Source: Clostridia bacterium (GTDB taxonomy: Bacteria > Bacillota > Clostridia > Christensenellales > CAG-138). From it: a stretch of DNA of 64,000 nucleotides. The stretch lies in contig JAVVXB010000007.1 of assembly GCA_036651815.1 (NCBI GenBank), forward strand, positions 14,192 through 78,191. The letters run 5' to 3'. Position 1 is the stretch's first letter. Every line of letters starts with the position of its first letter. The notes under the pieces were generated by a model that did not search any database, had not been told where the DNA came from, and saw nothing but the letters and a program-made list of their open reading frames with translations. Positions 7,983-61,660 of this stretch are shown in pieces. The translations under genes and the position numbers were made by a program.

Positions 7983-9070
7983 AAACAGGAAGACAGAGAA
8001 GACTGCGCCGTGTACTGCTGCTGGGGCTACTGCTGGGCTTGCTGGCCGGCGGCACGATGGAGAAAACAACTTACGCAGCCCGATCGGTGGGCGATATGGA
8101 CGGAAACGGAACGGTGACTGCTGCTGATGCGGCGAGAATTCTGCGCGCGGCGCAGCGGTATACCGTATTGACATCCGAACAGCGCATCTGCGCGGATGTG
8201 ACGGCAAACAATGTGCTTGACGGCACGGACGCGCGCGCAGCGGCATGGCTTGCAACGGGTCAAATTGTCGATTATGGTGCGTTTCTTGCGTCCATCCGCT
8301 CCGGCCTCTGCGACGAACGGTATTTTGATCGATTTCGTTATACCGGAGTAACCGACAGTGGAGACGGCAACTATAGAAGTAAAAATGTCGGTGTATGGAT
8401 AACGCGGGGGGAAGCGTACAACAGCGTGTATTATCTAGCCGATATCTATATTCGCGATATTCAAGCACTTAAGACGGGTTTTGGCGGCAATAAGTATCAG
8501 GGCGGCAGCGAGAAGGTGGGCGTCATGGCGGCCAATCTCGAAGCGATTGTTGCGGTCAATGGGGATTACTATGCCTGGCGTGCGGCAGGCCCGCTGGTGC
8601 GCAACGGGGAAGTTTACCGCGAGTATGTCAGCTATAGCGGGGAGATTGCATTTCTTTCCAAGGACGGCACGTTCACCACGTTGCCGGCTGGTCTAGTCGG
8701 GCGGGACACCGTAACCCAGCTGGACGTATACCAGACCTGGATGTTTGGTCCACCCTTGCTTGATGAAAACGGGAACGCAAAGACAAAGTTTACCGGGCAA
8801 CTGCTTAAGTATAACCCGCGTAGCGTCTTTGGTTATTATGAGCCTGGACATTACGCGTTGATCCTCGTGGATGGACGGCAGAAGGACTATTCTCTGGGGA
8901 TGGAAATGCAGGAATTGTCCTCGCTGTGCCACGATCTGGGACTGGCAGCAGCCTACAATCTGGATGGTGGGCGGTCTGCAGTTATGGCGAGCAAATATGG
9001 ACCGATCAGTCATCCGCAGAGCAAGGACGGCAGACCGGTGAGCGATATTGTTTATGTTTGCGAACCGTGA
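7979..9070 (+). CDS. Second secreted phosphodiester glycosidase family paralog with dockerin-like repeats
   Basis: GTG 7979 overlaps the upstream TGA (GTGA). Signal/TM segment RRLRRVLLLGLLLGLLAGG; dockerin-like GDMDGNGTVTAADAARILRAA and DVTANNVLDGTDARAAAWLATG; blocks VNGDYY, GPLVRNGE, AYNLDGGRSAVM. Confidence 0.75.
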   Translation: MKTGRQRRLRRVLLLGLLLGLLAGGTMEKTTYAARSVGDMDGNGTVTAADAARILRAAQRYTVLTSEQRICADVTANNVLDGTDARAAAWLATGQIVDYGAFLASIRSGLCDERYFDRFRYTGVTDSGDGNYRSKNVGVWITRGEAYNSVYYLADIYIRDIQALKTGFGGNKYQGGSEKVGVMAANLEAIVAVNGDYYAWRAAGPLVRNGEVYREYVSYSGEIAFLSKDGTFTTLPAGLVGRDTVTQLDVYQTWMFGPPLLDENGNAKTKFTGQLLKYNPRSVFGYYEPGHYALILVDGRQKDYSLGMEMQELSSLCHDLGLAAAYNLDGGRSAVMASKYGPISHPQSKDGRPVSDIVYVCEP

Positions 9071-9199: not shown

Positions 9200-9290
9200 G
9201 ATGTAGGCACGGGAATCATCGCAGCATCGTGGCAGCATCGTCAAACTTTTGTGAACGGTTGCGCAATTTGACGCATGTGAAAAAGATCTG

Positions 9291-9299
9291 TGCTATACT
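9291..9299 (+). promoter_or_regulatory. Candidate extended -10 promoter element for the exporter operon
   Basis: TGcTATACT lies 48 nt upstream of ATG 9347. A TTGACG hexamer at 9268-9273 is 20 nt away, which is too far for a canonical spacer. Confidence 0.3.
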
Positions 9300-9346
9300 G
9301 TAAAATCAAAAGAATTGTGAAACGAATATGTTCGGAGGATGGTCCT

Positions 9347-10855
9347 ATGAAAAAGAAGAAGAAGCGCATCATCATTCTGGCAGTAGTTGCGGCGGTGATC
9401 GTAATCGTTATTGTCATGATCAGCCAAATGGCGCGTGCCAGCGCATCCAAGATGATGGAAGCGGTCTATCAAAACTATACGGTAGCAAAGGGCACGGTGG
9501 AGACAACCATTACAGCCGGCGGGCAGCTTTCTGCGGAAGAGACGGAAAACGTACTGGTGCCGGATGGCTTGACCGTCACAAAGCTCTGTGTCTCCGCGGG
9601 TGACGAGGTGAAGGCCGGGGCTGTGTTGTGCGAACTCGATCCGGATAGCGTGCGCAATCAGTTGATCTATGCAGGGAAGCAGGCGACTACCTCTGAAAAT
9701 CACCTTGGCAAGAGCGGCACAAATGATACCATCACTGCCCCTGCCCAGGGCCGTCTCAAATATCAGCCGGCCAAGGTCGGGGACGATGTGATTTCTGATA
9801 TGCTGCAATATGGTGCGCTGGCCATACTATCCACGGATGGATGGATGCGGCTGGAGGTGCAGACCAACATGGAGCTGACGCTTGGTGAAAAGGTGATTGC
9901 CGAGTGGGACGGCGGCAAGGCCAAAGCCGTTGTGGATAAAAAGGTGGACGGCGGATATTCCATTCTGGTTCCGGACGATCACGCACCCTATCTGGTGACC
10001 GCTAAGGTGTACAAGATGGATCAGGAGGTTGGCAGTGGCACACTCCGGATCAATTTGCCAGTAGAGGTCTACGGCTTTGCGGGAACCATCCGTAAAGTCA
10101 GCTATCAAGTGGACGAGTCCGTACCGGATGGCCGGGCGCTGTTTACACTAACCAATCCACCGGTTTCAACGGGCTATGCTGCCCGTTATAATGAACGCAG
10201 CGGCCTGGCAGATCGATACGCGGCCCTCATCAGGCTGCATGCCAACCCCAGTGTGGTCGCGCCCTGCGACGGGATTATCAGCGAGATCTTTGTCACACAG
10301 GACGGGCTGACCGGCAAAGTCGATAAAGCCGACAAGGACAGCATTGCATTTTCCATTGCCACGGGCAGCATCAATCAGTTGGTTGTGGACGTGGACGAGC
10401 TGGATATTATTTCCACCTTGGAAGGATTGACCGCAGAGGTTACATTTGAAGCTTTGCCGAACGAGCATTTTTCAGGAGCGGTGACGCGGGTAACCAAAAT
10501 TGGCAAGAAGCAAAACAGCATCTCCACCTATCCCGTGGAGATTACGATCGAGCCGGATAAACGACTGTTGATTGGCATGAACGGCACGGCGACCATTCTT
10601 GCGGATCGTGTGGAAAACACACTGATTATCCCCATAAATGCCATCAGCGAGGATGGCGAAGGAACCTTCGTCAATGTGCTGGCGGCGGACGGTGCGCGGG
10701 TACGTACCGCAATTACAACTGGCAAATCGGATGGTAGCATGGTGGAGGTGACCAGCGGCCTTTCTGAGGGGGATGTGATTTCCTATACATTGCCCGGTCT
10801 AACACTGGCTGATATGTACGGTGGCATGCAAGGCGCGGCCGTAGCCATGGAGTGA
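9347..10855 (+). CDS. HlyD/MacA-type membrane-fusion (periplasmic adaptor) protein
   Basis: GGAGG RBS at 9334-9338; N-terminal TM anchor; biotinyl/lipoyl-like hairpin VSAGDEVKAGAVLCELD; C-terminal beta-barrel block; first gene of a HlyD-ABC-FtsX triad. Confidence 0.8.
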   Translation: MKKKKKRIIILAVVAAVIVIVIVMISQMARASASKMMEAVYQNYTVAKGTVETTITAGGQLSAEETENVLVPDGLTVTKLCVSAGDEVKAGAVLCELDPDSVRNQLIYAGKQATTSENHLGKSGTNDTITAPAQGRLKYQPAKVGDDVISDMLQYGALAILSTDGWMRLEVQTNMELTLGEKVIAEWDGGKAKAVVDKKVDGGYSILVPDDHAPYLVTAKVYKMDQEVGSGTLRINLPVEVYGFAGTIRKVSYQVDESVPDGRALFTLTNPPVSTGYAARYNERSGLADRYAALIRLHANPSVVAPCDGIISEIFVTQDGLTGKVDKADKDSIAFSIATGSINQLVVDVDELDIISTLEGLTAEVTFEALPNEHFSGAVTRVTKIGKKQNSISTYPVEITIEPDKRLLIGMNGTATILADRVENTLIIPINAISEDGEGTFVNVLAADGARVRTAITTGKSDGSMVEVTSGLSEGDVISYTLPGLTLADMYGGMQGAAVAME

Positions 10856-11553
10856 GGAATCTGATAGTGAAGAACGAAACGCCCGTCATTCAGATGCGGG
10901 ATATTACAAAGGTATATGATGTGGGTGGCGAGCAGGTCTATGCCTTGAACCAGGCCTGTATGAAGGTGTATGAGGGTGAGTTTGTGTCCATTGTTGGGCC
11001 TTCCGGCAGCGGGAAGTCCACACTCATGAACATCATGGGCTGCCTGGATACGGCTGACAGCGGTGAATATTTGCTGGATGGACAACCCATTGAACAGTAC
11101 ACCGAGCGCCAGCTAACCAAAATCCGCAATCAAAAGATTGGATTTGTTTTCCAGGGCTTTAACCTGCTTGGCAAGATGACGGCGGAGGAAAACGTGGAAC
11201 TGCCGCTGATTTACCAGCGGCTGAATGCCGCGCTGCGCCGGGAACGTGTGCATGAGGCGCTGGAACGGGTTGGGTTGACCGACCGGCGACAACATAAGCC
11301 AACGGAGCTTTCTGGCGGTCAGCAGCAGCGCGTTGCGATAGCGCGGGCACTGGTTACGCATCCGGCTCTTCTTCTTGCCGATGAACCAACCGGCAATCTG
11401 GATTCCAAGACCGGAGACGATATTATGCGGCTGTTTCACGAACTGCATGAGGCTGGCAACACCATAGTCCTCATTACCCACAACGAGGGTATTGCAGAAC
11501 AGGCCGGCCGGTGCATCCATATTATGGATGGACAAGTTAGCGAGGTGGATTGA
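10852..11553 (+). CDS. MacB/LolD-type ABC transporter ATP-binding protein
   Basis: Walker A GPSGSGKST, signature LSGGQQQRVAIARAL, Walker B LLLADEPT. The start overlaps the upstream stop. Confidence 0.9.
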   Translation: MRNLIVKNETPVIQMRDITKVYDVGGEQVYALNQACMKVYEGEFVSIVGPSGSGKSTLMNIMGCLDTADSGEYLLDGQPIEQYTERQLTKIRNQKIGFVFQGFNLLGKMTAEENVELPLIYQRLNAALRRERVHEALERVGLTDRRQHKPTELSGGQQQRVAIARALVTHPALLLADEPTGNLDSKTGDDIMRLFHELHEAGNTIVLITHNEGIAEQAGRCIHIMDGQVSEVD

Positions 11554-12738
11554 ATGCTGGTGCAATCAATCAAGATGGCCTGGCAGGCCATCGTCAGCAA
11601 TAAAATGCGGTCGTTTCTGACCATGCTGGGCATCATCATCGGCGTTATGGCGATGGTGGTTATGGTGTCGCTTGTCAATGGTGCCACCGGTAAGGTTACG
11701 AGCGAAATTGAATCTCTTGGTACCGACCGTATCAGCGCCTATATATTTGACAACAAGGGCAAGCCGATCAAGTTGAGTGATCTGGAGGAAATTCAGCAGA
11801 ATGCAGCCATCGATCAGGTCGCGCCACAGGTCAACTACAGCACAGGGGCCAAGCATGGCTACAAAGACGCCACTGTCGTGATGTATGGGACAACGGCGGC
11901 TTATGAAGCCATCGGGGGGATCAGTTTGAAATATGGGCGTTTCATCCGAACCACCGATTTGGATAATAATGCTTATGTGGCAGTGCTTGCTTACAACACG
12001 GCAAAGAAACTGTTCGATCGTGTAGATGTCGTCGGCGAACCGCTTTCCATCGGTGGACGGACGTTCACGATCGTGGGGGTGCTGGAGGAGAATAAATCAA
12101 CGATGTCCTATTCGGCGTTCCAGTATGATGTATATGTACCGTATACGGTTTTGACCCGGATGACGGGTCAGACTGAAATCGGCACGATCTTTGCCACATC
12201 AGCCGATCCGGAAAGCAACGACGCGGCGGAGCAGATGCTGACAAGCTACCTCAGCGCACGGTTCAACGGGGATGCCGACGCATTCTATATTGACAACATG
12301 ACCACCATGATGAATACCATGAGTACGGTGACCAACACCATGCAACTGCTGCTGGGCGGTATCGCGGCCATATCGCTGCTGGTGGGCGGCATTGGCATTA
12401 TGAATATCATGCTGGTATCCGTCACGGAGCGCACACGTGAAATCGGCATTCGCAAGGCAATCGGCGCAGGGCGCGGTAGCATCATGATGCAGTTTCTGAT
12501 CGAAGCGCTCATGGTGAGTTTATTCGGTTGCATCATCGGATTGCTGTTTGCTGCAGGCGTATTAAGGATTGCGACGGCAGTTGCAGCGGCGACGGCGGGC
12601 ATCAACTTTACCATGTCGCCGGGGGTTGTGATACTGGCCGCAGGATTTTCATCCGCAATCGGTCTGATTTTCGGCCTGTATCCAGCCAATAAAGCCGCCA
12701 AGATGCCGCCAATTGAGGCACTCAGATATCAAGGATAA
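11554..12738 (+). CDS. MacB/FtsX-family ABC transporter permease
   Basis: MacB periplasmic-domain layout followed by the FtsX core VGGIGIMNIMLVSVTERTREIGIRKAIGA. It abuts the ATPase gene. Confidence 0.9.
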   Translation: MLVQSIKMAWQAIVSNKMRSFLTMLGIIIGVMAMVVMVSLVNGATGKVTSEIESLGTDRISAYIFDNKGKPIKLSDLEEIQQNAAIDQVAPQVNYSTGAKHGYKDATVVMYGTTAAYEAIGGISLKYGRFIRTTDLDNNAYVAVLAYNTAKKLFDRVDVVGEPLSIGGRTFTIVGVLEENKSTMSYSAFQYDVYVPYTVLTRMTGQTEIGTIFATSADPESNDAAEQMLTSYLSARFNGDADAFYIDNMTTMMNTMSTVTNTMQLLLGGIAAISLLVGGIGIMNIMLVSVTERTREIGIRKAIGAGRGSIMMQFLIEALMVSLFGCIIGLLFAAGVLRIATAVAAATAGINFTMSPGVVILAAGFSSAIGLIFGLYPANKAAKMPPIEALRYQG

Positions 12739-12750
12739 GGAGAACGATTC

Positions 12751-13212
12751 ATGTTCCATATCGTATTGGTGGAACCGGAGATACCGCAAAACACAGGCAA
12801 TATTGCCAGAAGCTGTGCAGTGACGGGAGCCGCACTGCACCTGGTGCGGCCGCTGGGTTTCTCAGTGGATGATAAACAGCTCAAACGTGCGGGACTGGAT
12901 TATTGGATGGATTTGGAGATTCACTATTACGATAGCTTTGCAGAGGTTGAGCAGACGTATCCGGCGGCAAAGTTCCATTTGCTCAGTACGCATGCGACGC
13001 GGTCCTATGCGGACGCAACCTATCAAGATGGTGATTTTCTCGTGTTTGGGAAGGAAACGGCCGGCCTTGGGCAGATGATTCTCACCAGGCGCGCGGGCGA
13101 TGCAGTGCGCATTCCCATGCGGCAAAACGAACGCTCGCTCAACCTTTCGAACTCGGTTGCCATCGTTTTATACGAAGCTTTGCGGCAAAATCAGTTTTTC
13201 GGCATGAAATAA
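12751..13212 (+). CDS. trmL: tRNA (cytidine/uridine-2'-O)-methyltransferase TrmL (SpoU class)
   Basis: MFHIVLVEPEIPQNTGNIARSCA N-terminus and LFGKETAGL...SLNLSNSVAIVLYEALRQ knot motifs; AAGGAG RBS. Confidence 0.9.
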   Translation: MFHIVLVEPEIPQNTGNIARSCAVTGAALHLVRPLGFSVDDKQLKRAGLDYWMDLEIHYYDSFAEVEQTYPAAKFHLLSTHATRSYADATYQDGDFLVFGKETAGLGQMILTRRAGDAVRIPMRQNERSLNLSNSVAIVLYEALRQNQFFGMK

Positions 13213-13483: not shown

Positions 13484-13497
13484 GTGCTTTCCACACG

Positions 13498-13534
13498 CGC
13501 CATGCTCTTTATCAGAGCATGGCGTTTTCTTTTC
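13498..13534 (+). terminator. Intrinsic terminator of rpmB
   Basis: Perfect 11-bp stem CGCCATGCTCT / AGAGCATGGCG, 5-nt loop, then TTTTCTTTT. Confidence 0.85.
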
Positions 13535-13540
13535 CAGTAT

Positions 13541-13570
13541 ATTTCCATTGGAAATGGCATCTGATATAAT
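13541..13570 (+). promoter_or_regulatory. Promoter plus palindromic operator candidate directly abutting the giant ORF
   Basis: 7-1-7 palindrome ATTTCCA-T-TGGAAAT (13541-13555) overlaps a -35-like TTTCCA. After a 17-nt spacer comes an extended -10, TGaTATAAT (13562-13570). The predicted +1 is near 13577, the A of the second ATG. Confidence 0.45.
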
Positions 13571-13573
13571 CAA

Positions 13574-16500
13574 ATGATGTTGACAAACGATTCTGAATGG
13601 ACGCAAGTCTTTCTCGAAAGACTGCATGCGGAGCTGACTGTCCGCTGTGGTTCCGATTGGCGTGTGCGCCTTGCACAACCTAGTGATGCGATGATGCTCA
13701 ATCTACTTGGGGAAACGGTTTTTGACCGCTTTCATCTCGGTCAACAGGCACTGCCTCTTTGCCGCTGCGCGCTGGATAAACTGTCTGAAGAGCCAGAGGA
13801 GGGGTGGATTGCCGCAGCCTATGCCTACCTGATCGATGCATTCTATCCGCCGGAAGTGCCGTCGCCGGAATCACCGGAACGCACGGCCGCGCTGGAGCTG
13901 TATCTGGCAGTTTTGCACACCTGTATCCTGCGGGAACGTGAGACGCGTTCCTACGATCCGCTGACCGATGTGCTGTTTGTGACGGAGCAGGAGCGTGCCG
14001 TGAGCGCAGTGTCGGATGAATACGATGCATTTCTTACTGCGGTGACACAGGCGCGATACTTGGAACTCATGCATTTGGCGCGGGCCGTAACGCCATTAGA
14101 TCCGCTTTCCCACACGGCGGGCGTACATCATGTGGCGGTACACATGGCGCGTCAGGCGGTAGACTGTGGCATTCCTGTGGATATCGCGCTGGTTTCTGCG
14201 GCGGCGGTTGCACACGATATCGGCAAGTTTGGTTGCCGGAGCAACGACAGCAAGCGCGTGCCTTATCTGCATTACTATCATACCGATCGATGGTTGATCC
14301 AAAACGGTCTACCGCATATTGCCCATGTTGCGTCCAACCATTCCACTTGGGATCTCGAATATGAGAATCTGCCGGTGGAATCACTGCTGCTCATCTATGC
14401 GGATTTCCGCGTGCGCGGTACGAAGGACGGCGGCAGAGAACGCATCGAAATTCACACGTTGGCGGAGGCAGGGGAAATCATCTTCGGCAAGTTGACCAAC
14501 ATGGTGGCTGAGAAACGGCGGCGTTATCAGCGCGTCTATCATAAGCTATGTGACTTTGAAGGTGCGCTCACACACCTTGGCGTGAACCCTGATCCGTTTT
14601 CGGATACGTTTTTGCTGGTGGAACCTGTGAACGCTGCCCTGCTGCCGGATGCGCAGGATGTAGATCTGCTCAAACGCATGGCCATAGAGCGCAACCTGCG
14701 ACTGATGCATGCCTTCAGTGCCAACGAATCGTTTGAGCGATTGTTGGAGCAGGCGCGCAGCGAAAAGACACTGGAGAGCATCCGAACCTACCTCAATTTG
14801 TTTGAGGAATACTGCACCTATATGACGCGCGCGCATAAGCTGGAAACGCTCAATTTGCTCTACGAACTGCTGATGCATCAGGAGAGCGATGTGCGCAGGT
14901 TGGCGGGCCGGCTCATGGGACGAATTTTATCCAACGACGGATTGCAATATCGTAAGGAATTGCCAGACAACGCGCCGGAGACAGCCATTGCGCCAACGCT
15001 GTCCGAAATGCTTCAGGAGCGTGAGGCACTCTGGCAAAAGTATCTAGAGTTGCTGCTGTCCCCCGATCCAAAGATTGGCAAAAAGCATGCAATACGCATT
15101 GTCAACTCGCTCAAGGTGGTTGTGGAAAGTCTCTTTGATCACTGCAAACACATGGATGCGCGGGGATATCTGAACCAATTGCTGGCGCGTTATCGGAACG
15201 TGTTGCCAACGGAACGATTTGTGTTGATGGATACCATTGTGCGCATACCGGTTCAACTGCTGACGGAGGATGAGATGGGCATGCTCATCGAATCGACGAT
15301 GCCGATGCTGACGCAGACCGATAGCAGCGAACAGGTGTGTGCACTGCGTGCGTTGTTGCATTTTGTTACGCAGCGCCGCGAAGAAACGGGCACACAGATT
15401 GGCGTGATGCTGGAAAAGACGCCGATTGTGGGCGGAACGGCGGTCAACTATCTGCTGGGCTGTATTTGCGCACGGCTGCGCAGTCAGAATGCAGCGGTTC
15501 CGGCTACGGGCCGACTGTCTGGCGGCGAGGTTTCGGAGCTGTGCCTCATGAACCTAAAAAACGCGGTGCATTGGATTGTCAAAGAGACAAATATTGATGT
15601 GCTGTGCGCTTATGCTACCAACAGCCCGGCGGATACATTTCAAGTTGCAACCCATCTAAGCAATCTTTTGATGGTATCTGAACATCTTCCAGTGCGAGAA
15701 CATGCAGGCAGGGCGCTGGTCGCACTGTCGGGCAGACTCGGCGTGGATCAGGTTAACGAACTCGTCATCGATCTTTGCCGTGGACTGGATACGGAGCAGA
15801 GGGAATTTCTGCGCTATGTACCGGCGACGCTGTCGACGATGATTCAATGCCTACCCGCCCAGGAGCAGGACGAAACCATTTCTATCCTGGAACATATGGT
15901 ACGTTCCGGCGCGGCCCGTGCCGCAGGCGCTGCGCTCTCCACGCTGGGGACAATGCTTGTGGGGCTTGCGCTTTCCACCGAACCGGGAGATAAGCTGTCC
16001 AACGGCCGCCAGAAACGCATCCTGGGCATCCTACTGGCCGGCTTGGCACACTTTGACGACACGGTGCACCGGGCGGCGCTGACCGTTCTCTGCCGGGACG
16101 TGTGTGGCGCACAGCAGTTGCCGCTAGGCAGACGGCGGACGCTGTTTGTTCAATTCATGAAAAAAATGATTACCATTTTGCCAGAGCGGGCAGAAAATGA
16201 GATTACCTTTTTCAATACGGGCGCTATGCTTAACCATCTGTACCGAATGATGATTGACTGCGAAGTGAACTTTGGCCCATTTATATTTCCGGCACCCGGC
16301 GCGGTTGCGTTTTTTCCAGGTACATTCGATCCGTTTTCCAGTGGACACAAGCGGATTGTGAGGGAGATTCGTTCACTGGGAATCGAGGTCTACCTCGCTG
16401 TGGATGAATTTTCATGGTCGAAGAGCATGCAGCCCAAACTGCTCCGGCGGCAGATTACGCTGATGAGCGTGGCCGACTGCTTCGGGGTATATCTATTTCC

Positions 16501-18376
16501 GGATGATCAGCCGGTCAACCTTGCCAATCCGGCAGATTTGGCGCGGTTAAAGCGGTTTTTCCCCGGACGTCAATTGTTTTTGGTAGCCGGTAGCGATGTC
16601 ATCGAACAGGCGACGGCTTACGCGGACGCATCCATTGCAGGCAGTGCGGGTACTTATGACCATATTTTGTTTTCCCGCCGGAAATTGGTGGAGAAACAGG
16701 GCGATGCAACCCATAGCACCGCTCGGGAACGTCTGCGCGGACAGATCATTGAGTTGTCGCTGCCAACGTATTATGAAGAGGTAAGTTCATCGCGCATTCG
16801 GGCGTTTGTCGATAAAAATCTCGAAATCTCGATGTTGGTCGATCCGGTGGTGGAGTCGTTTATTCATGAAAAAGGCTTGTATTTGCGCGCACCACAATAT
16901 AAGCAGACGCTGCCGCCCGAGAAATGGGCGCTGACAACGCTTCTTTGCACCGATGAATCCACGCCGCATGCGCTGCGCACGCTGCCGGAGGATTTTGCTT
17001 CAAAACTGCTGGATACACTGCGGCAGGGGAGCGGACGGGCCGTGCTGCTGACCGACGGCAGGAGTGCGATTGTGTCCGCAGCAATCTTTGCCCACACGGT
17101 CAATGCGGGACAATTGCTCTACGAACTGCGAAACGTTAAGCTTGCGGAATATGTGCGCATGCATAGCTCCGGCAAGGTTCTGCGTATCGATGGTGCGTGC
17201 GTGCCGCCGGATTGCCCGGAGGTCGCGGAAGAACTTGCCAACGAGCTGGTTACGGGCTGTCTCGCTGATGATCATACCTATGCGTTGTATGTTAGCACCG
17301 GGCCGGACGATCCGCTGGAAATCGTGCTGCGCAAGAAGGGATTTCGGATTGTGGATCGGGACGAGCAGACGTTGCTTGTGGATATGCGCGCGCCTCTTGT
17401 TATAATGCTGGATGCGTTTAGCATGCTCAAGGAACCCTTTGCTTCCGATCCCGTAGTGATGGCTTGCGTGCTGTCGTCGCGCGAGAAGCTGCTGGATGGG
17501 CTGTGCGCCCTGTTTCCGGGCGAACTGGTACTTTCGTTTGATACGCGGCAAATCAACCATGCGCTCATTCATAAGGCACAGCAGTATAATGGCGTTCTGG
17601 GATTGCCGGAAAAGCCGCGGCGTCTGGGTCCGTTCATGTGTGTGCCATACGGCAAGATCCTTTCCGACGTGGTTGTGCCCAACACTGTAACCAAGGCGCT
17701 GCACGTGGAAAAAGTGTTTGAAAACGACATCCGTCACTTTACCATCCGGGAGGAAGCCGGTTATTCCCCGCTTGTGCACCAGATCCGAACGATCCGCTCG
17801 TTCAATCGCCCCGTGCTGCTGGTGGATGATCTACTGCACAATGGCTACCGTATGGAGAAGCTGAGTCCGCTGTTCACCAGCGAACAGGTGGAGATTCGGC
17901 GGATACTGGTGGGGATTCTTTCCGGCCGCGGCAAGGATCTTATGCAACAGCAGGGACGCAGCGTAGATGCCGTCTATATGATTCCAAACCTGCGCTACTG
18001 GTTTACGGAGAGTCTGCTGTATCCGTTTATCGGCGGGGACAGCGTCATGCGGCGCGGCGGAAACGCAGAGAGCAGCCTACCCTCCGTCAATTTGATTCTA
18101 CCGTATCGCTCACCAGAGTTTCTGCATGAAGTTTCGGATGAGAAGAAGGCGCACCTGTCCATGCTGGCGCTGACCAACGCCTGCAAGATATTGCATACAT
18201 TGGAGCAGCGGTATCAGGTATTGTTTCGGCGGAGCCTGACACTGGCACGGCTGGGGGAGGCGCTGCAAAAGCCGCGCATGCCCGACAAGGGGCTGTGTGT
18301 GCACTATGACCGCAGCATGCCCGCATCTGTTGTTTTGCGCGATGATATCGACTGGATGATGAGAATGGGGATTTGA
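13574..18376 (+). CDS. 1,600-aa multidomain protein: HD phosphohydrolase + HEAT-like repeats + NadD/NMNAT-type nucleotidyltransferase + GNAT-like region + PRT-like C-terminal module
   Basis: HD signature AVAHDIGKFG (HD codons 14213-14218); HEAT-like ESDVRRLAGRLMGRIL, LPVREHAGRALVALSG, DDTVHRAALTVL; nucleotidyltransferase motifs GTFDPFSSGH (16325-16348) and VSSSRIR (16781-16801); PRT-like RPVLLVDDLLHNGYRM (17813-17851). The frame is uninterrupted for 4.8 kb. Confidence 0.8.
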   Translation: MMLTNDSEWTQVFLERLHAELTVRCGSDWRVRLAQPSDAMMLNLLGETVFDRFHLGQQALPLCRCALDKLSEEPEEGWIAAAYAYLIDAFYPPEVPSPESPERTAALELYLAVLHTCILRERETRSYDPLTDVLFVTEQERAVSAVSDEYDAFLTAVTQARYLELMHLARAVTPLDPLSHTAGVHHVAVHMARQAVDCGIPVDIALVSAAAVAHDIGKFGCRSNDSKRVPYLHYYHTDRWLIQNGLPHIAHVASNHSTWDLEYENLPVESLLLIYADFRVRGTKDGGRERIEIHTLAEAGEIIFGKLTNMVAEKRRRYQRVYHKLCDFEGALTHLGVNPDPFSDTFLLVEPVNAALLPDAQDVDLLKRMAIERNLRLMHAFSANESFERLLEQARSEKTLESIRTYLNLFEEYCTYMTRAHKLETLNLLYELLMHQESDVRRLAGRLMGRILSNDGLQYRKELPDNAPETAIAPTLSEMLQEREALWQKYLELLLSPDPKIGKKHAIRIVNSLKVVVESLFDHCKHMDARGYLNQLLARYRNVLPTERFVLMDTIVRIPVQLLTEDEMGMLIESTMPMLTQTDSSEQVCALRALLHFVTQRREETGTQIGVMLEKTPIVGGTAVNYLLGCICARLRSQNAAVPATGRLSGGEVSELCLMNLKNAVHWIVKETNIDVLCAYATNSPADTFQVATHLSNLLMVSEHLPVREHAGRALVALSGRLGVDQVNELVIDLCRGLDTEQREFLRYVPATLSTMIQCLPAQEQDETISILEHMVRSGAARAAGAALSTLGTMLVGLALSTEPGDKLSNGRQKRILGILLAGLAHFDDTVHRAALTVLCRDVCGAQQLPLGRRRTLFVQFMKKMITILPERAENEITFFNTGAMLNHLYRMMIDCEVNFGPFIFPAPGAVAFFPGTFDPFSSGHKRIVREIRSLGIEVYLAVDEFSWSKSMQPKLLRRQITLMSVADCFGVYLFPDDQPVNLANPADLARLKRFFPGRQLFLVAGSDVIEQATAYADASIAGSAGTYDHILFSRRKLVEKQGDATHSTARERLRGQIIELSLPTYYEEVSSSRIRAFVDKNLEISMLVDPVVESFIHEKGLYLRAPQYKQTLPPEKWALTTLLCTDESTPHALRTLPEDFASKLLDTLRQGSGRAVLLTDGRSAIVSAAIFAHTVNAGQLLYELRNVKLAEYVRMHSSGKVLRIDGACVPPDCPEVAEELANELVTGCLADDHTYALYVSTGPDDPLEIVLRKKGFRIVDRDEQTLLVDMRAPLVIMLDAFSMLKEPFASDPVVMACVLSSREKLLDGLCALFPGELVLSFDTRQINHALIHKAQQYNGVLGLPEKPRRLGPFMCVPYGKILSDVVVPNTVTKALHVEKVFENDIRHFTIREEAGYSPLVHQIRTIRSFNRPVLLVDDLLHNGYRMEKLSPLFTSEQVEIRRILVGILSGRGKDLMQQQGRSVDAVYMIPNLRYWFTESLLYPFIGGDSVMRRGGNAESSLPSVNLILPYRSPEFLHEVSDEKKAHLSMLALTNACKILHTLEQRYQVLFRRSLTLARLGEALQKPRMPDKGLCVHYDRSMPASVVLRDDIDWMMRMGI

Positions 18377-18377
18377 T

Positions 18378-19304
18378 ATGGAGTCACTGCATAGAATTGA
18401 ACCAGTTTTGCCAAACGGAAAAATCGGACGTACGCTGCATCTGGTGGGACTCGGAGATGTGGGTGGCACGTTGCTGACCGGACTCATGCTGACGTGTCCA
18501 ATGCTTGAAACCATTGGAATCTACGATTTTGACGCACGCCGCTGCGCACGCTACGAGCAGGAGATGAACCAGATTTTGCCTATGGACGGCAGGAAACCTC
18601 ATGTGACTGTGCTGCAATTGGAAGAACTGTTTGATGGCTGTGATCTGTTTGTGTTTGCGGCATCGGCAGGGACGCCGCCGGTGGGGACGGGGGTGGCGGA
18701 TGTGCGGATGATCCAGTATGAAAAGAATCTGGGCATCCTGCGACCTTATGTAGAGATGGCAGTTCGGAAGGGCTACGCGGGGTTGTTTTTGCAGATGTCC
18801 GATCCGGTGGATCAGCTCTGCATGCAAGTAATGAACGTGGGGCTGAAGCCGGAGCAAATTGTCGGTTGTGGATTGGGGGTGATGCTTGCCCGCGCAGATT
18901 ACTGCGCACGAAAGCGTGGCAATACAAACTTTCTGGTGAATGGGCGCGTATTTGGTCCCCATGGAAACGGTCTTATTGTGGCAAATGACCCCAAGGATGG
19001 ATATGACGACGAATATTCCCGCGCACTTACACAGGCAGTGCTACAGGCAAACCTGGCCGTGCGGGAAACTGGCTATAAGCCGTACATCGCGCCTGGACTG
19101 TCCTCCGGCTGCCTCAGCATTCGCAGCCTGCTGTCCGGCACCTGGTTCCATGGCTCGTTCTTCGATTCGGGCGGGATTTTCTGGGGATGTCGGGCAAGGC
19201 TCACAGAATGCGGCGTGGAACGAGAGACAATACGGCTGCATCCACTGCTGCATGCACGCATCGAAGAAACCAGAAAGGGGCTGTTACAATGCCGGAACGA
19301 TTGA
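18378..19304 (+). CDS. LDH/MDH-family (2-hydroxyacid) dehydrogenase-like Rossmann protein
   Basis: GLGDVGG dinucleotide loop; D at the end of beta-2 (IYDFD); FAASAGTPP...VRM; SDPVD; GPHGNG in the position of the catalytic-His loop. ATG lies 1 nt after the upstream TGA, with the RBS inside the upstream gene. Confidence 0.7.
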   Translation: MESLHRIEPVLPNGKIGRTLHLVGLGDVGGTLLTGLMLTCPMLETIGIYDFDARRCARYEQEMNQILPMDGRKPHVTVLQLEELFDGCDLFVFAASAGTPPVGTGVADVRMIQYEKNLGILRPYVEMAVRKGYAGLFLQMSDPVDQLCMQVMNVGLKPEQIVGCGLGVMLARADYCARKRGNTNFLVNGRVFGPHGNGLIVANDPKDGYDDEYSRALTQAVLQANLAVRETGYKPYIAPGLSSGCLSIRSLLSGTWFHGSFFDSGGIFWGCRARLTECGVERETIRLHPLLHARIEETRKGLLQCRND

Positions 19305-20383
19305 CGATTCTTACCCTTGGGAAGCACACACGGCTCGGGGATATCCTTGCCTATGCGCTGGATGGTGTGGATTTTAATGCGGTAACTGCGGAGGAGATGA
19401 AATCGACAGACCTCAGGGGCAGGCGCATTCTATTTGCGCTCTCGCTGGACGAGAGCGGCTTGGCGGACGATTTCATGTGCTGCATCCGCTATCTGCGCAC
19501 CCATTTTCAGGCGCTGGATGGCGCTACGGGAGCGATACTGGTGGACAGTGCCACGGAGCTGTATACAAAAGAAATTGCCCGGACGTTGGTATTTGACGCA
19601 AACTGCTCCGGCTGCCGCTTCCCGGGGCGGGGCATGGTTGAGGCGACCAAATCGTTAAAAAATTTTGATGTTCTCTGTGGTGTTTATGGCGTGGATCGTT
19701 ACACAGCCTATCAACGTGCTGTGCGTTTACTCATCGAGCGGTTGTGTTCCGATGTGCCGGCTCAGTTTGAACGGCCCAAAGTATTATGGTTACACGCGTC
19801 CGACAAAGCACGTTCCAACGCCTTTGCACTGGGCAGTCAAGTGACGGAACGGTTAGCTGACTGCTGCGAAATTAATGAGATTTCCATGCAGGCAAGTCCG
19901 ATCAATGACTGCAATGGATGCTCGTATAAAACCTGCCAGCATTATGCCGAACAGGAGACGTGCTTTTATGGCGGGATATTGCCGGAAGCGGTTTTTCCGG
20001 CCATTATGGCATGTGACGCGCTGTTGCTTTGTTGCTCCAATTACAACGATGCGCCCGGCGCACATTTTTTGGCGCTCAACAATCGCCTCAATGCCCTGCT
20101 GCTGCGTGGGAAACCGTTCAATAAGGCGCTGTTTGCCATCGTGGTATCCGGCTATAGCGGCGGCGATTTGGTGGCGAAGCAGCTGATGGGCGGCTTCTGC
20201 TTGAATAAACCTTGCTGCCTGCCACCGCGCTTTGCGCTGCTGGAAACAGCCAATGATCCGGGGACCGTTTTACAGGAGATGGGTGTATTTGACAGGATTG
20301 CGGCCTATGCCGACCAAATTCAGCAAGAACTGTGCATCCGAGAAACAGCGCGGGTGCCATGCGCAGAAGCAACGCCAGAATGA
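19289..20383 (+). CDS. Two-module flavodoxin-fold protein; C-terminal half resembles NADPH-dependent FMN reductase / iron-sulfur flavoprotein
   Basis: The second half has KVLWLHASDKARSN..., a Cys cluster CNGCSYKTCQHYAEQETC, and ACDALLLCCSNYNDAPGAHFLALNNRL, typical of the FMN_red/Isf family. ATG 19289 overlaps the upstream gene by 16 nt. Confidence 0.65.
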   Translation: MPERLTILTLGKHTRLGDILAYALDGVDFNAVTAEEMKSTDLRGRRILFALSLDESGLADDFMCCIRYLRTHFQALDGATGAILVDSATELYTKEIARTLVFDANCSGCRFPGRGMVEATKSLKNFDVLCGVYGVDRYTAYQRAVRLLIERLCSDVPAQFERPKVLWLHASDKARSNAFALGSQVTERLADCCEINEISMQASPINDCNGCSYKTCQHYAEQETCFYGGILPEAVFPAIMACDALLLCCSNYNDAPGAHFLALNNRLNALLLRGKPFNKALFAIVVSGYSGGDLVAKQLMGGFCLNKPCCLPPRFALLETANDPGTVLQEMGVFDRIAAYADQIQQELCIRETARVPCAEATPE

Positions 20384-20538
20384 TCGTTCCTACCCTTATC
20401 ATGGCGCATTCAGATAATCGATTTTATGACGAGAAAATTTGCTTGATTTCAATATCAATTTTGGGTGTGTTCCTGAATATTCCGAAAAACGTTCTCGATA
20501 TTGTTTATCATTTCGGGGTATATATTCTGCACGCATGA
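20380..20538 (+). CDS. Candidate 52-codon small ORF coupled by ATGA overlap to the flavoprotein gene (speculative)
   Basis: ATG 20380 overlaps TGA 20381-20383. It encodes MIVPTLIMAHSDNRFYDEKICLISISILGVFLNIPKNVLDIVYHFGVYILHA with one hydrophobic span. Composition is AT-rich, unlike the operon. Confidence 0.2.
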   Translation: MIVPTLIMAHSDNRFYDEKICLISISILGVFLNIPKNVLDIVYHFGVYILHA

Positions 20539-20704
20539 TTCAGATTGACCGCCAGTAAACCTGCGAATGCTCATTCTGAATGGATAAAAAATCAACTGAA
20601 ACCGCAGAACTTCCGATATAAAAGCATACCTTGATGCGGACAAAGAATCCAGCGAAACTGCAAAAGCTCTTTATAGAAACAAACCATCATAAAGAAGAAA
20701 ATGC

Positions 20705-20740
20705 CATTGCAAACTTCGCGTTTGACAATGCCTGTTTTTT
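20705..20740. terminator. Intrinsic terminator between the giant-protein operon and the convergent NUDIX gene
   Basis: Stem CATTGCAAAC / GTTTG(A)CAATG with loop TTCGC, then CCTGTTTTTT on the + strand. The minus-strand side is also T-rich. Confidence 0.5.
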
Positions 20741-20819
20741 CGTTGGGTGGGGGGGCAGGCTTCAATATTTTGCGCTTGCGTAACAGACATTTTTTACAGA
20801 AAACAATGGCTTGAATACA

Positions 20820-60650: not shown

Positions 60651-61496
60651 TTAATTGCCAGATCGCCATGTTCTGCGATATTCAGCAGGCGTCATTTTTT
60701 CGTGCTCTCGAAAAATCCTAATAAAGTAGCTGGAGCTTTCGATCCCTGTCTCTTCCGCAACAGCGGAGACGGGAATTTCTGTCATGCGCAGTAGCTCCTT
60801 TGCGCGAGAAATACGGATATTGACCAAAAACTGATTGGGTGTTTGACCGGTTTTCATGACAAAGAGTTTTTGCAGATAGGTTTTATTCAGAGAAATGAAG
60901 TCGGCAAGTACGTCCAATGTAATCTTTCGTTTATAGTTGGCGTTAATAAAATCCTGCGCTTGACGAACGTATTTTGACTGAACTCCGCTATCGTCACGCG
61001 CAACGGACGTGATGCATTCGGTTTGAATCTGCAGCAACAGGGTGGAAGCCAGCAAATCTGTGTTTTGTGCCGACTGCTGTTTGTATAATCCAATGAGCGA
61101 ATACATGTTTTGCACGACGGTGCTATTTGGCGGGAGCCTGCCAGTATTTCCGCCGTTTATTCGGATGAACCGATCATACAGATATTCGCTTGCTCCACCA
61201 TAAAAGTGAAGCCAGAGAACACGCCAGTTTCCTGTACGCGGACTGGTTAAATAGTACTGAGGATTTTGACAATCGATCCAGAAGAAATGTCCTTGCGGTA
61301 GATACACTTCTTGGTTTTCGTAGGAAAGATACCCTTCTCCGGAAAGCGTGTACTTGATCAGATATGACGGCAACCCTTCGCGTTTTGTAAAATACTTTTC
61401 GTGCGCGATGAAATCACCCAACTCTTGAACGAACGGAAGATTTTCTTTCGTCTCCTGCTGTGAAGAGACGATCAACCATTCGGATTCCGGTTCCAT
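60651..61496 (-). CDS. AraC-family transcriptional regulator (RhaR/RhaS-like, cupin + HTH)
   Basis: C-terminal double HTH (LNKTYLQKLFVMKTGQTPNQFLVNIRISRAKELL...VAEETGIESSSYFIRIFREHEKMTPAEYR). The track start TTG 61562 lies upstream of a TATAAT (about 61551-61546, minus strand), so the real start is more likely ATG 61496 or GTG 61520. Confidence 0.85.
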   Translation of the reverse strand: MEPESEWLIVSSQQETKENLPFVQELGDFIAHEKYFTKREGLPSYLIKYTLSGEGYLSYENQEVYLPQGHFFWIDCQNPQYYLTSPRTGNWRVLWLHFYGGASEYLYDRFIRINGGNTGRLPPNSTVVQNMYSLIGLYKQQSAQNTDLLASTLLLQIQTECITSVARDDSGVQSKYVRQAQDFINANYKRKITLDVLADFISLNKTYLQKLFVMKTGQTPNQFLVNIRISRAKELLRMTEIPVSAVAEETGIESSSYFIRIFREHEKMTPAEYRRTWRSGN

Positions 61497-61660
61497 ATCG
61501 ATTTGATAAGTAAGATTCACACCTATACTCCAAAATACCAATATTTTATTATATTCTAGCAAGAATCATTGATGTAAACAATAGAAAAGGGACTTATACT
61601 GTAATTGCAGTATACCACGAAATGTATATTCATATCACAATATTGATCGGGGGAAGTCGT

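Follow-up and report, generated by a model that had tools for sequence, protein, structure and literature searches.

A conserved three-gene unit of Clostridia pairing a five-domain nucleotide-enzyme-like protein with two redox-type partners: a candidate undescribed system

A stretch of 64,000 nucleotides from a Clostridia bacterium (contig JAVVXB010000007.1, positions 14,192 to 78,191; hereafter the window, to which all coordinates given without a locus name refer) carries on its forward strand three interlocked genes that are conserved together across Clostridia, and that we regard as a real candidate for an undescribed system. Read from a six-frame list of open reading frames (ORFs) and from the raw sequence, they encode a giant protein of 1600 amino acids (13574..18376, stop codon TGA at 18374-18376), a protein of 308 amino acids resembling lactate dehydrogenase (LDH; 18378..19304, ATG at 18378, TGA at 19302-19304) and a flavoprotein of 364 amino acids (19289..20383, ATG at 19289). 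Their translations are identical over the full length (100% identity) to the database proteins P0001 (1600 aa), P0241 (308 aa) and P0121 (364 aa), respectively, and the three start codons thus agree with independent gene calls.

The recurrence of the trio in other genomes carries this finding. A scan with conserved peptides of the giant protein, run on one genome per species (GTDB), gave at least 581 confirmed relatives, of which the best 80 loci were kept and searched with the window proteins by tblastn. Loss of synteny had been named beforehand, in an initial annotation of the window, among the observations able to refute the unit, but synteny held: of the 62 loci that have at least 2.3 kb of downstream DNA, 59 show the LDH-like gene and then the flavoprotein gene behind the giant gene, all on one strand, the exceptions being two loci without either partner nearby (L026 and L076) and one with the flavoprotein gene upstream (L052). 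These loci come from several families, namely Oscillospiraceae, Christensenellaceae, Anaerovoracaceae and Lachnospiraceae (including Blautia, Tyzzerella and Anaerotignum), as well as from Sedimentibacter and from metagenome-assembled genomes labelled Peptococcaceae. Cultured species found by the scan include Faecousia intestinalis, Anaerovorax odorimutans, Sedimentibacter saalensis and Hominibacterium faecale. Grouped at 90% identity, the giant protein forms at least 3337 clusters, the flavoprotein about 2,800 and the LDH-like protein about 2,000, and the trio is apparently inherited vertically in strictly anaerobic Clostridia.

Nothing else travels with these three genes. In an all-against-all clustering of the flanking ORFs of the 80 loci only the trio recurs, the next-best families being asparagine-synthase-like and glutamate-dehydrogenase-like ORFs (named by eye) with 9 loci each, and the called-gene tables of two further contigs list unrelated flanks of housekeeping type. 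The possible fourth gene of the initial annotation therefore falls, none being conserved beside the trio in the 80 loci. The genes next to the unit in the window, a NUDIX hydrolase gene converging on it and rpmB upstream, were rejected as members since no homologue of either was found in any of the 80 related loci. Because only the trio recurs, its flanks vary and NUDIX and rpmB are absent elsewhere, the unit appears to be a self-contained module of three genes, and the NUDIX convergence coincidental, as had been suspected. In 16 loci, the sequence immediately ahead of the giant gene contains no riboswitch or leader matched by Rfam. The trio of the closest relative (L001) is closely followed by a c-di-GMP-I riboswitch (8747-8835, 77 bits), whose apparent target is the next gene, not the trio.

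Neither junction of the trio has intergenic space, and the coordinates and the internal ribosome-binding site initially described proved accurate in both ORF list and sequence: GGGGA lies at 18367-18371, within the coding sequence of the giant gene and ahead of the LDH-like ATG at 18378, and GAAAGGGG at 19273-19280 precedes the flavoprotein ATG at 19289, the latter two genes overlapping by 16 nt. The commonest junctions at both boundaries in the related loci are overlaps of 11, 4 or 1 nt, counted from the start nearest the upstream stop, a choice that favours tight junctions. Terminator-like matches inside the trio are weak and not enriched (15 versus 10.7 +/- 3.0 in shuffled sequences). Overlapping or abutting genes of this kind fit one transcript and translational coupling of the trio.

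From its N- to its C-terminus, the giant protein is predicted to comprise an HD phosphohydrolase, HEAT-like repeats, a NadD-like adenylyltransferase, a GNAT fold and a type I phosphoribosyltransferase (PRTase) fold, which gives substance to its first description as a giant nucleotide-enzyme fusion. Invariant residues were taken from an alignment of 15 sequences, and 15 relatives were scanned one by one against Pfam, giving CTP_transf_like in 15/15, HD in 14/15 and HEAT in 9/15. The HD domain (14081..14428, about residues 170-285; Pfam HD at residues 179-277, with 17.3 bits against a cut-off of 22) retains invariant H180, H214-D215 (HDIGKFG), H233, H256 (NHSTWDLE) and D277; the H...HD...D metal-binding residues are present, and the invariant set as a whole resembles a di-metal-type pattern. 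The YqeK model was absent among the NCBIfam matches at E<=0.01, which consisted only of generic HDIG, TIGR00295 and DVU_1551-type HD models. The helical repeat region (14561..16273, about residues 330-900) is recognised by Pfam HEAT, HEAT_EZ or HEAT_2 in the 9 relatives mentioned, and has a weak profile match to CAND2.

Next comes a HIGH-type nucleotidyltransferase domain resembling NadD and nicotinamide mononucleotide adenylyltransferases (NMNAT; 16286..16888, about residues 905-1105), with the motifs GTFDPFSSGH and VSSSRIR. Pfam CTP_transf_like covers residues 913-1077 with 22.8 bits against a cut-off of 21, and TIGR00482 (NadD) aligns end to end (positions 2-194 of 194; residues 914-1103) with 31.2 bits against a cut-off of 112.45; NF000840 gives 27.9 against 150 bits. 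FDPFxxGH and SSxxIR are invariant, including G924, H925, S1071, S1072 and R1076, and the (H/T)xGH and ISSTxxR motifs that bind adenosine triphosphate (ATP) in NadD/NMNAT are intact.

Beyond this domain no Pfam model covers residues 1105-1600, and a profile search of the PDB by sequence gave no relative for the GNAT/PRTase region; both assignments come from an AlphaFold model of residues 1105-1600 (17-sequence alignment, predicted local distance difference test (pLDDT) 84.5, predicted template modelling score (pTM) 0.85) compared with the PDB by Foldseek. The GNAT-fold domain (16925..17428, about residues 1118-1285) matches GCN5, agmatine and polyamine N-acetyltransferases and TacT/AtaT with a Foldseek probability of 1.0; no Pfam acetyltransferase match was found for it among the 15 relatives. 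The PRTase-fold domain and its conserved helical tail (17513..18373) match uracil (UPRT, 6wn8), xanthine (XPRT, 1y0b) and adenine (APRT, 7y94) phosphoribosyltransferases, also with probability 1.0 and with a template modelling score to the target of 0.4-0.5, and Pfam Pribosyltran matches weakly in a few relatives. The loop that would bind phosphoribosyl pyrophosphate (PRPP) is altered and reads VLLVDDLLHNGYR (residues 1414-1426); D1418, D1419, H1422, G1424 and R1426 are invariant.

The second protein is, judging from its sequence, a far-diverged Rossmann dehydrogenase of the LDH/malate dehydrogenase superfamily, of the type using nicotinamide adenine dinucleotide (NAD). The LDH-like label given at the outset was right, for a protein that is very divergent and devoid of Asp168. 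Its best sequence matches in the PDB are L-LDHs (E ~1e-7), Pfam Ldh_1_N reaches 22.2 bits against a cut-off of 27 and Ldh_1_C gives no match in the Pfam scan of the window protein, the cut-offs of the NCBIfam L-LDH and malate dehydrogenase models are missed (38 against 339 bits for the L-LDH model PRK00066), and most of its relatives carry no precomputed Pfam match. When about 60 relatives are numbered by alignment to an approximate Geobacillus LDH reference sequence, the Rossmann GxGxxG motif (GLGDVGG) and the equivalents of the loop arginine Arg109 (DVRM), of the substrate-binding Arg171 ((L/x)AR) and of the catalytic His195 (GPHG) are invariant. Asp168, which in LDH is the partner of the catalytic histidine, gives way to an invariant Met (GLGVM), the substrate loop exceeds that of LDH by 6-7 residues, and Lys occupies the position of Thr246. 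These signatures hold in relatives at about 30% identity as well. Most relatives are about 410 aa long because of an additional domain at the N-terminus, of about 100 aa, that matches no family (e.g. L002 14689-15957, L078 14698-15927); a short form of 297-330 aa occurs in the lineage of the window, the extra domain being absent also in L001, L051 and L055.

The third protein is covered by Pfam FMN_red (PF03358) over residues 163-313, with 33.4 bits against a cut-off of 24. Its AlphaFold model (34 sequences, pLDDT 86.5) consists of two alpha/beta halves, in line with the double flavodoxin fold noticed initially: the C-terminal half matches WrbA, SsuE, ArsH and NQO flavin mononucleotide (FMN) reductases in Foldseek, and the N-terminal half, which has no known motif, probably also adopts a flavodoxin/CheY-like fold, since the whole-chain matches are double-receiver proteins. 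In addition, four cysteines, C208-x2-C211-x4-C216-x8-C225 (19910..19963), are invariant in 100% of about 59 relatives and in the distant type B relatives described below, at a position that we take to be that of the [4Fe-4S] motif of the iron-sulfur flavoprotein Isf; the protein is thus a candidate for carrying an Isf-like iron-sulfur (Fe-S) site. The cysteine loop has low confidence in the model, as expected of a metal site modelled without its metal. PDB searches gave no relative of the flavoprotein at the sequence level. A match to cytochrome c6 was discarded as a short chance match around a single cysteine, and apparent fusions of the flavoprotein (long ORFs of 704, 426 and 392 aa) were rejected as read-through artefacts of ORF extension.

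The trio belongs to a wider superfamily, in which the partners change together with the state of the adenylyltransferase. In an exhaustive hidden Markov model search over 1.84 billion representatives (50% identity), a profile of the C-terminal part of the giant protein retrieved 516 proteins at E<=1e-3, of which 218 reach E<=1e-30, the full-length matches being mostly of 1550-1650 aa and the shorter ones resembling incompletely called genes. Some distant members, of 1050-1310 aa, form a set that begins with Met and aligns only from residue 350-390 of the giant protein on, and therefore lacks the HD domain. Behind one part of this set, type B, come an LDH-like and an FMN_red gene whose starts overlap the preceding gene (L084 and L088), so that the trio persists even where the HD domain is missing and identity has fallen to about 30%; a further locus (L085), whose third gene is cut by the contig end, was left unclassified. 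In L084 the type B trio is followed, at 13884-18088, by a 976-aa BcrAD_BadFG + DUF2229 protein of the coenzyme A (CoA)-enzyme activase type and a second DUF2229 protein, an arrangement not present in the related locus L088.

In the other part, type C, the HD-less protein is directly preceded by a PPDK_N protein of 849-895 aa (L086 5317-8004, L087 699-3278, L090 110-2683, L091 3365-5989, L092 866-3418, L094 3449-5998), with ends overlapping or abutting, and no LDH-like or flavoprotein gene follows in these six loci. The ATP-grasp domain PPDK_N is the only recognised part of this partner, its N-terminal 300 aa or so and its C-terminal part matching no family; the idea that the HD domain had been relocated to it was rejected, no match to the giant-protein profile being found. 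The L091 contig holds an Ldh_1_N + FMN_red pair (1-1110) and, about 5 kb downstream, the PPDK_N + type C pair, which argues that type C is a paralogue co-existing with the trio. The interval between the two pairs contains genes for a LysR regulator, a 4HBT thioesterase and a ferredoxin. The nucleotidyltransferase motifs are intact in all 5 examined proteins of types A and B, that is, those with LDH-like and flavoprotein partners, whereas of the six type C proteins five have lost the HxGH histidine and all have a degenerate SSxxIR. A strict rule equating type C with a dead HxGH was rejected, because P0437 keeps GH, though its SSxxIR is degenerate. The PRTase-like VDDxxHKGxR motif is kept in every examined protein, HD-less and type C ones included, and the comparison points to the PRTase-fold module as the invariant core of the superfamily and to the HD module as an accessory.

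What could such a set of proteins do together? This reading starts from the observed gene order and conservation of the trio, and from the folds and conserved motifs of its products. Our preferred proposal, put forward tentatively and with more doubt than conviction, is that the trio builds and proofreads a pyrophosphate-linked, NAD-like metabolite or activated intermediate, in an ATP-dependent manner and with dedicated redox partners. We infer the formation of a complex, each catalytic activity and the identity of the metabolite as follows. The three products would act as one complex, with the HEAT region as docking platform. The PRTase-fold domain, the sole catalytic-type module kept in every branch, would make or hold a ligand of the 5-phosphoribosyl type, and the NadD-like domain would spend ATP on adenylylating a small molecule that is phosphorylated or acidic, yielding the pyrophosphate-linked, NAD-like product or activated intermediate. 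Wrong or spent products would be hydrolysed by the HD domain, in the role that YqeK plays beside NadD. The dehydrogenase and the FMN/Fe-S protein would make, or tailor by redox chemistry, the non-nucleotide head group, which is probably a 2-hydroxy or 2-oxo acid because the Arg171/His195 site is conserved.

That the adenylyltransferase is intact with the redox pair and decayed with the ATP-grasp protein suggests an ATP-dependent activation step in the chemistry, and the same partner swap suggests that the redox pair supplies the substrate of the adenylyltransferase or acts on its product. Proofreading of NadD-type products by an HD domain also has a precedent, since the YqeK HD domain fused to NadD hydrolyses nicotinic acid adenine dinucleotide (NaAD) and wrong-nucleotide analogues (PMC9426524).

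Several findings weigh against this proposal. None of the three proteins reaches the cut-off of any functionally defined family (NadD, L-LDH), and no riboswitch (Rfam) or conserved neighbour (clustering of the 80 loci) points to a metabolite. In the PRPP loop, the invariant VLLVDD with its acidic pair is followed by LLHNGYR, not by xxTGxT, so that the T-G-x-T is missing, and the acyl-CoA pyrophosphate loop (Q/R-x-x-G-x-G/A) is not recognisable by eye in the GNAT-fold domain of the family consensus; as these usual loops are not seen, the GNAT fold or the PRTase fold may be a ligand-binding pseudo-enzyme. With Met at the place of Asp168, LDH-type chemistry may be altered in the second protein. 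The HD domain, to which proofreading is ascribed, is dispensable in distant branches, and the correlation between nucleotidyltransferase motifs and partners is drawn from 11 proteins. A bolder form of the proposal, in which the trio is a machine making and proofreading an undescribed nucleotide-linked cofactor or metabolite, and hence represents a new pathway as opposed to a variant form of NAD metabolism, is possible but doubtful; the paralogous ATP-grasp-dependent branch would then make a related compound.

The main rival keeps the activation step and changes its purpose. Following the logic of PanE/PanC or CofC/FbiB, the LDH-like enzyme would yield a 2-hydroxy from a 2-oxo acid, the HIGH-type domain would form an acyl- or phospho-acid adenylate, the GNAT and PRTase folds would transfer the activated group to an amine or a nucleotide, and the FMN/Fe-S protein would reduce an enol or oxidised intermediate, adenosine monophosphate (AMP) being a leaving group that does not appear in the product. 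The HIGH fold is shared by PanC, CitC and class I aminoacyl-tRNA synthetases, all of which make acyl-adenylates, the carboxylate clamp Arg171 is conserved in the LDH-like protein together with His195, and the decayed motifs of type C with their upstream PPDK_N fit the replacement of one ATP-dependent activation by another. We nevertheless judge such a carboxylate-activating ligase line unlikely: the nucleotidyltransferase domain aligns with the whole NadD model, the region binding the mononucleotide phosphate included, no PanC or CitC model matches at E<=1, and PPDK_N proteins are dikinases that form no acyl-phosphate.

Third in rank, and improbable, is a writer and eraser of a signal nucleotide, in which the adenylyltransferase would make a dinucleoside polyphosphate or a similar alarmone, the HD domain would degrade it, and the NAD- and FMN-binding partners would report the redox state. 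A synthetase and an HD hydrolase in one chain recall SpoT/RelA and GlnD, and the HDIGK motif with its extra histidines is reminiscent of nucleotide phosphodiesterases of the di-metal type, the HD-GYP protein 4mcw being a weak profile match. YqeK-type HD enzymes, moreover, cleave diadenosine tetraphosphate (Ap4A) according to work cited in PMC9426524. On the other side, whole sub-branches without the HD domain keep the partners, so that hydrolysis would be accessory, the LDH-like protein has conserved catalytic residues, which speaks for a working enzyme and against a pure sensor, and no effector or receptor is linked to the trio.

Could the three genes simply be ordinary housekeeping neighbours, a true NadD, an L-lactate dehydrogenase and a WrbA-type NAD(P)H oxidoreductase? 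Their names in the source records say so ("nicotinic acid mononucleotide adenylyltransferase", "lactate dehydrogenase" and "NAD(P)H-dependent oxidoreductase"), yet the scores lie far under the equivalog cut-offs, the Asp168 to Met change and the lengthened substrate loop set the dehydrogenase apart, and a 1,600-aa architecture with overlapping partners in nearly every locus is not expected of unrelated genes, all of which makes this explanation very improbable. There is still less to be said for an anti-phage or NAD-depleting defence system: NAD-related domains are common in such systems, and phage challenge had been proposed initially, but PADLOC has no defence-system model matching any of the three proteins, the contexts are varying housekeeping ones without mobile-element neighbours, and conservation is broad and apparently vertical in more than 500 species representatives. 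The weakest alternative, to which we give hardly any credence, is a substitute dipicolinate synthase built by analogy with DpaA/DpaB from the dehydrogenase-like protein and the flavoprotein; the trio does follow dapA-dapB-lysC-lysA in L082 and L083, and Isf has been proposed as such a substitute in cluster I Clostridium (preprint 10.1101/803486), a proposal that is itself only correlative, but the dap neighbourhood is not conserved in the clustering of flanking ORFs and the 1,600-aa protein is left without a role. Christensenellaceae, moreover, are not known to sporulate and yet carry relatives.

As regards the boundaries of the unit in the window, the strong intrinsic terminator of rpmB claimed upstream is present (13497..13525, a 12-bp stem followed by a T-run; -21.4 kcal/mol, z = -6.5). 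It forms the upstream boundary in this genome only, as rpmB adjoins the trio in no related locus. The promoter-like element ascribed to the giant gene exists as a site (13542..13570, TTTCCA-17-TATAAT, 10/12 consensus matches), but such sites are not more frequent around the trio than in shuffled sequence (8 found versus 7.5 expected), and the consensus match provides a lead only. Its -10 box TATAAT (13565-13570, in the segment 13563-13580), preceded by TG, leaves only 3 nt to the ATG at 13574 and 6 nt to another in-frame ATG, at 13577, with no Shine-Dalgarno sequence upstream; if the promoter is real, this proximity would make the mRNA leaderless, and the giant gene may be translated from such a transcript. 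At the other end, the terminator initially placed at 20705-20740 stands as a hairpin (20705-20730) followed by a T-run, together spanning 20705..20741, but it is AU-rich and weak (z = -0.95 for a 71-nt segment) and is not among the matches of the terminator scan of the window; it is a possible 3' end of the trio, about 320 nt past the last stop codon.

The hairpin lies in a comparatively AT-rich spacer of 436 nt (20384-20819) between the convergent flavoprotein and NUDIX genes, which holds only short ORFs (e.g. 20455-20643 on the minus strand, 62 aa); Rfam gives no match in the window, this spacer included. Upstream, the stretch 9290-13212 encodes an HlyD-like membrane-fusion protein, a MacB-type ATP-binding cassette (ABC) ATPase, a permease and a SpoU-family RNA methyltransferase, and is followed by rpmB; its first two ORFs share 4 nt, those of the ATPase and the permease adjoin each other, and none of these genes is conserved beside the trio in other loci. 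Elsewhere in the window, the segment 60001-62000, around a minus-strand ORF at 60651-61562, has a GC content of 0.435 versus about 0.53 in the remainder of the window, and may be foreign DNA.

The family defined by the trio is large and spread through lineages of Clostridia, many of them gut-derived. The public names of its members, NadD, lactate dehydrogenase and NAD(P)H oxidoreductase, are probably wrong or misleading on the present evidence. A conserved investment of 7 kb in four nucleotide-binding catalytic folds and two redox proteins implies that current maps of these organisms lack some part of nucleotide or cofactor metabolism, and the partner swap, with the redox pair accompanying an intact adenylyltransferase and the ATP-grasp protein a decayed one, offers an experimental handle.

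How does the trio compare with known systems? Every fold in it looks familiar, and no described pathway seems to account for the combination: the initial annotation had been unable to map it to one, and we likewise found no curated family, PADLOC match or paper, full-text literature searches giving nothing on the family and, for the domain combination, only jumbo-phage papers. Among the closest parallels are the NadD-YqeK fusions and operons of Firmicutes and mycoplasmas. There, too, one polypeptide can unite a HIGH nucleotidyltransferase of NadD type with an HD phosphohydrolase, and it is the HD domain that hydrolyses the pyrophosphate-linked products of the transferase (PMC9426524). In the giant protein, by contrast, the order of these domains is reversed, about 600 residues of HEAT-like repeats separate them, and domains of GNAT and PRTase fold are added; it lacks a match to the YqeK model and scores far below the NadD cut-off, and NadD-YqeK is without dedicated LDH-like and Fe-S flavoprotein partners. 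NadR and NadM-Nudix, too, have an NMNAT-type domain fused to other nucleotide-handling domains, in their case ribosylnicotinamide kinase, helix-turn-helix or Nudix domains and not the HD, GNAT and PRTase folds of the giant protein; we know of no redox partners or HEAT scaffold in either.

The redox partners can be placed in the same way. A redox step using NAD(P)H or FMN is combined with the nucleotide activation of a small hydroxy or phospho acid in TarJ/TarI, PanE/PanC and, for F420, CofC/FbiD with FbiB; these are analogies, without homology to the trio beyond the superfamily fold. The LDH-like protein shares GxGxxG and the equivalents of Arg109, Arg171 and His195 with L-lactate and malate dehydrogenases, and differs from them by Met168, a longer loop, Lys246 and, in most members, the N-terminal domain of about 100 aa. 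The flavoprotein has the flavodoxin-like FMN_red domain of WrbA, SsuE, ArsH and Methanosarcina Isf, and it bears a compact four-cysteine motif, a candidate counterpart of that of Isf, about 45-60 residues into this domain; its spacing is CX2CX4CX8C, versus CX2CX2CX4-7C in Isf, and an additional N-terminal flavodoxin/CheY-like domain sets it further apart.

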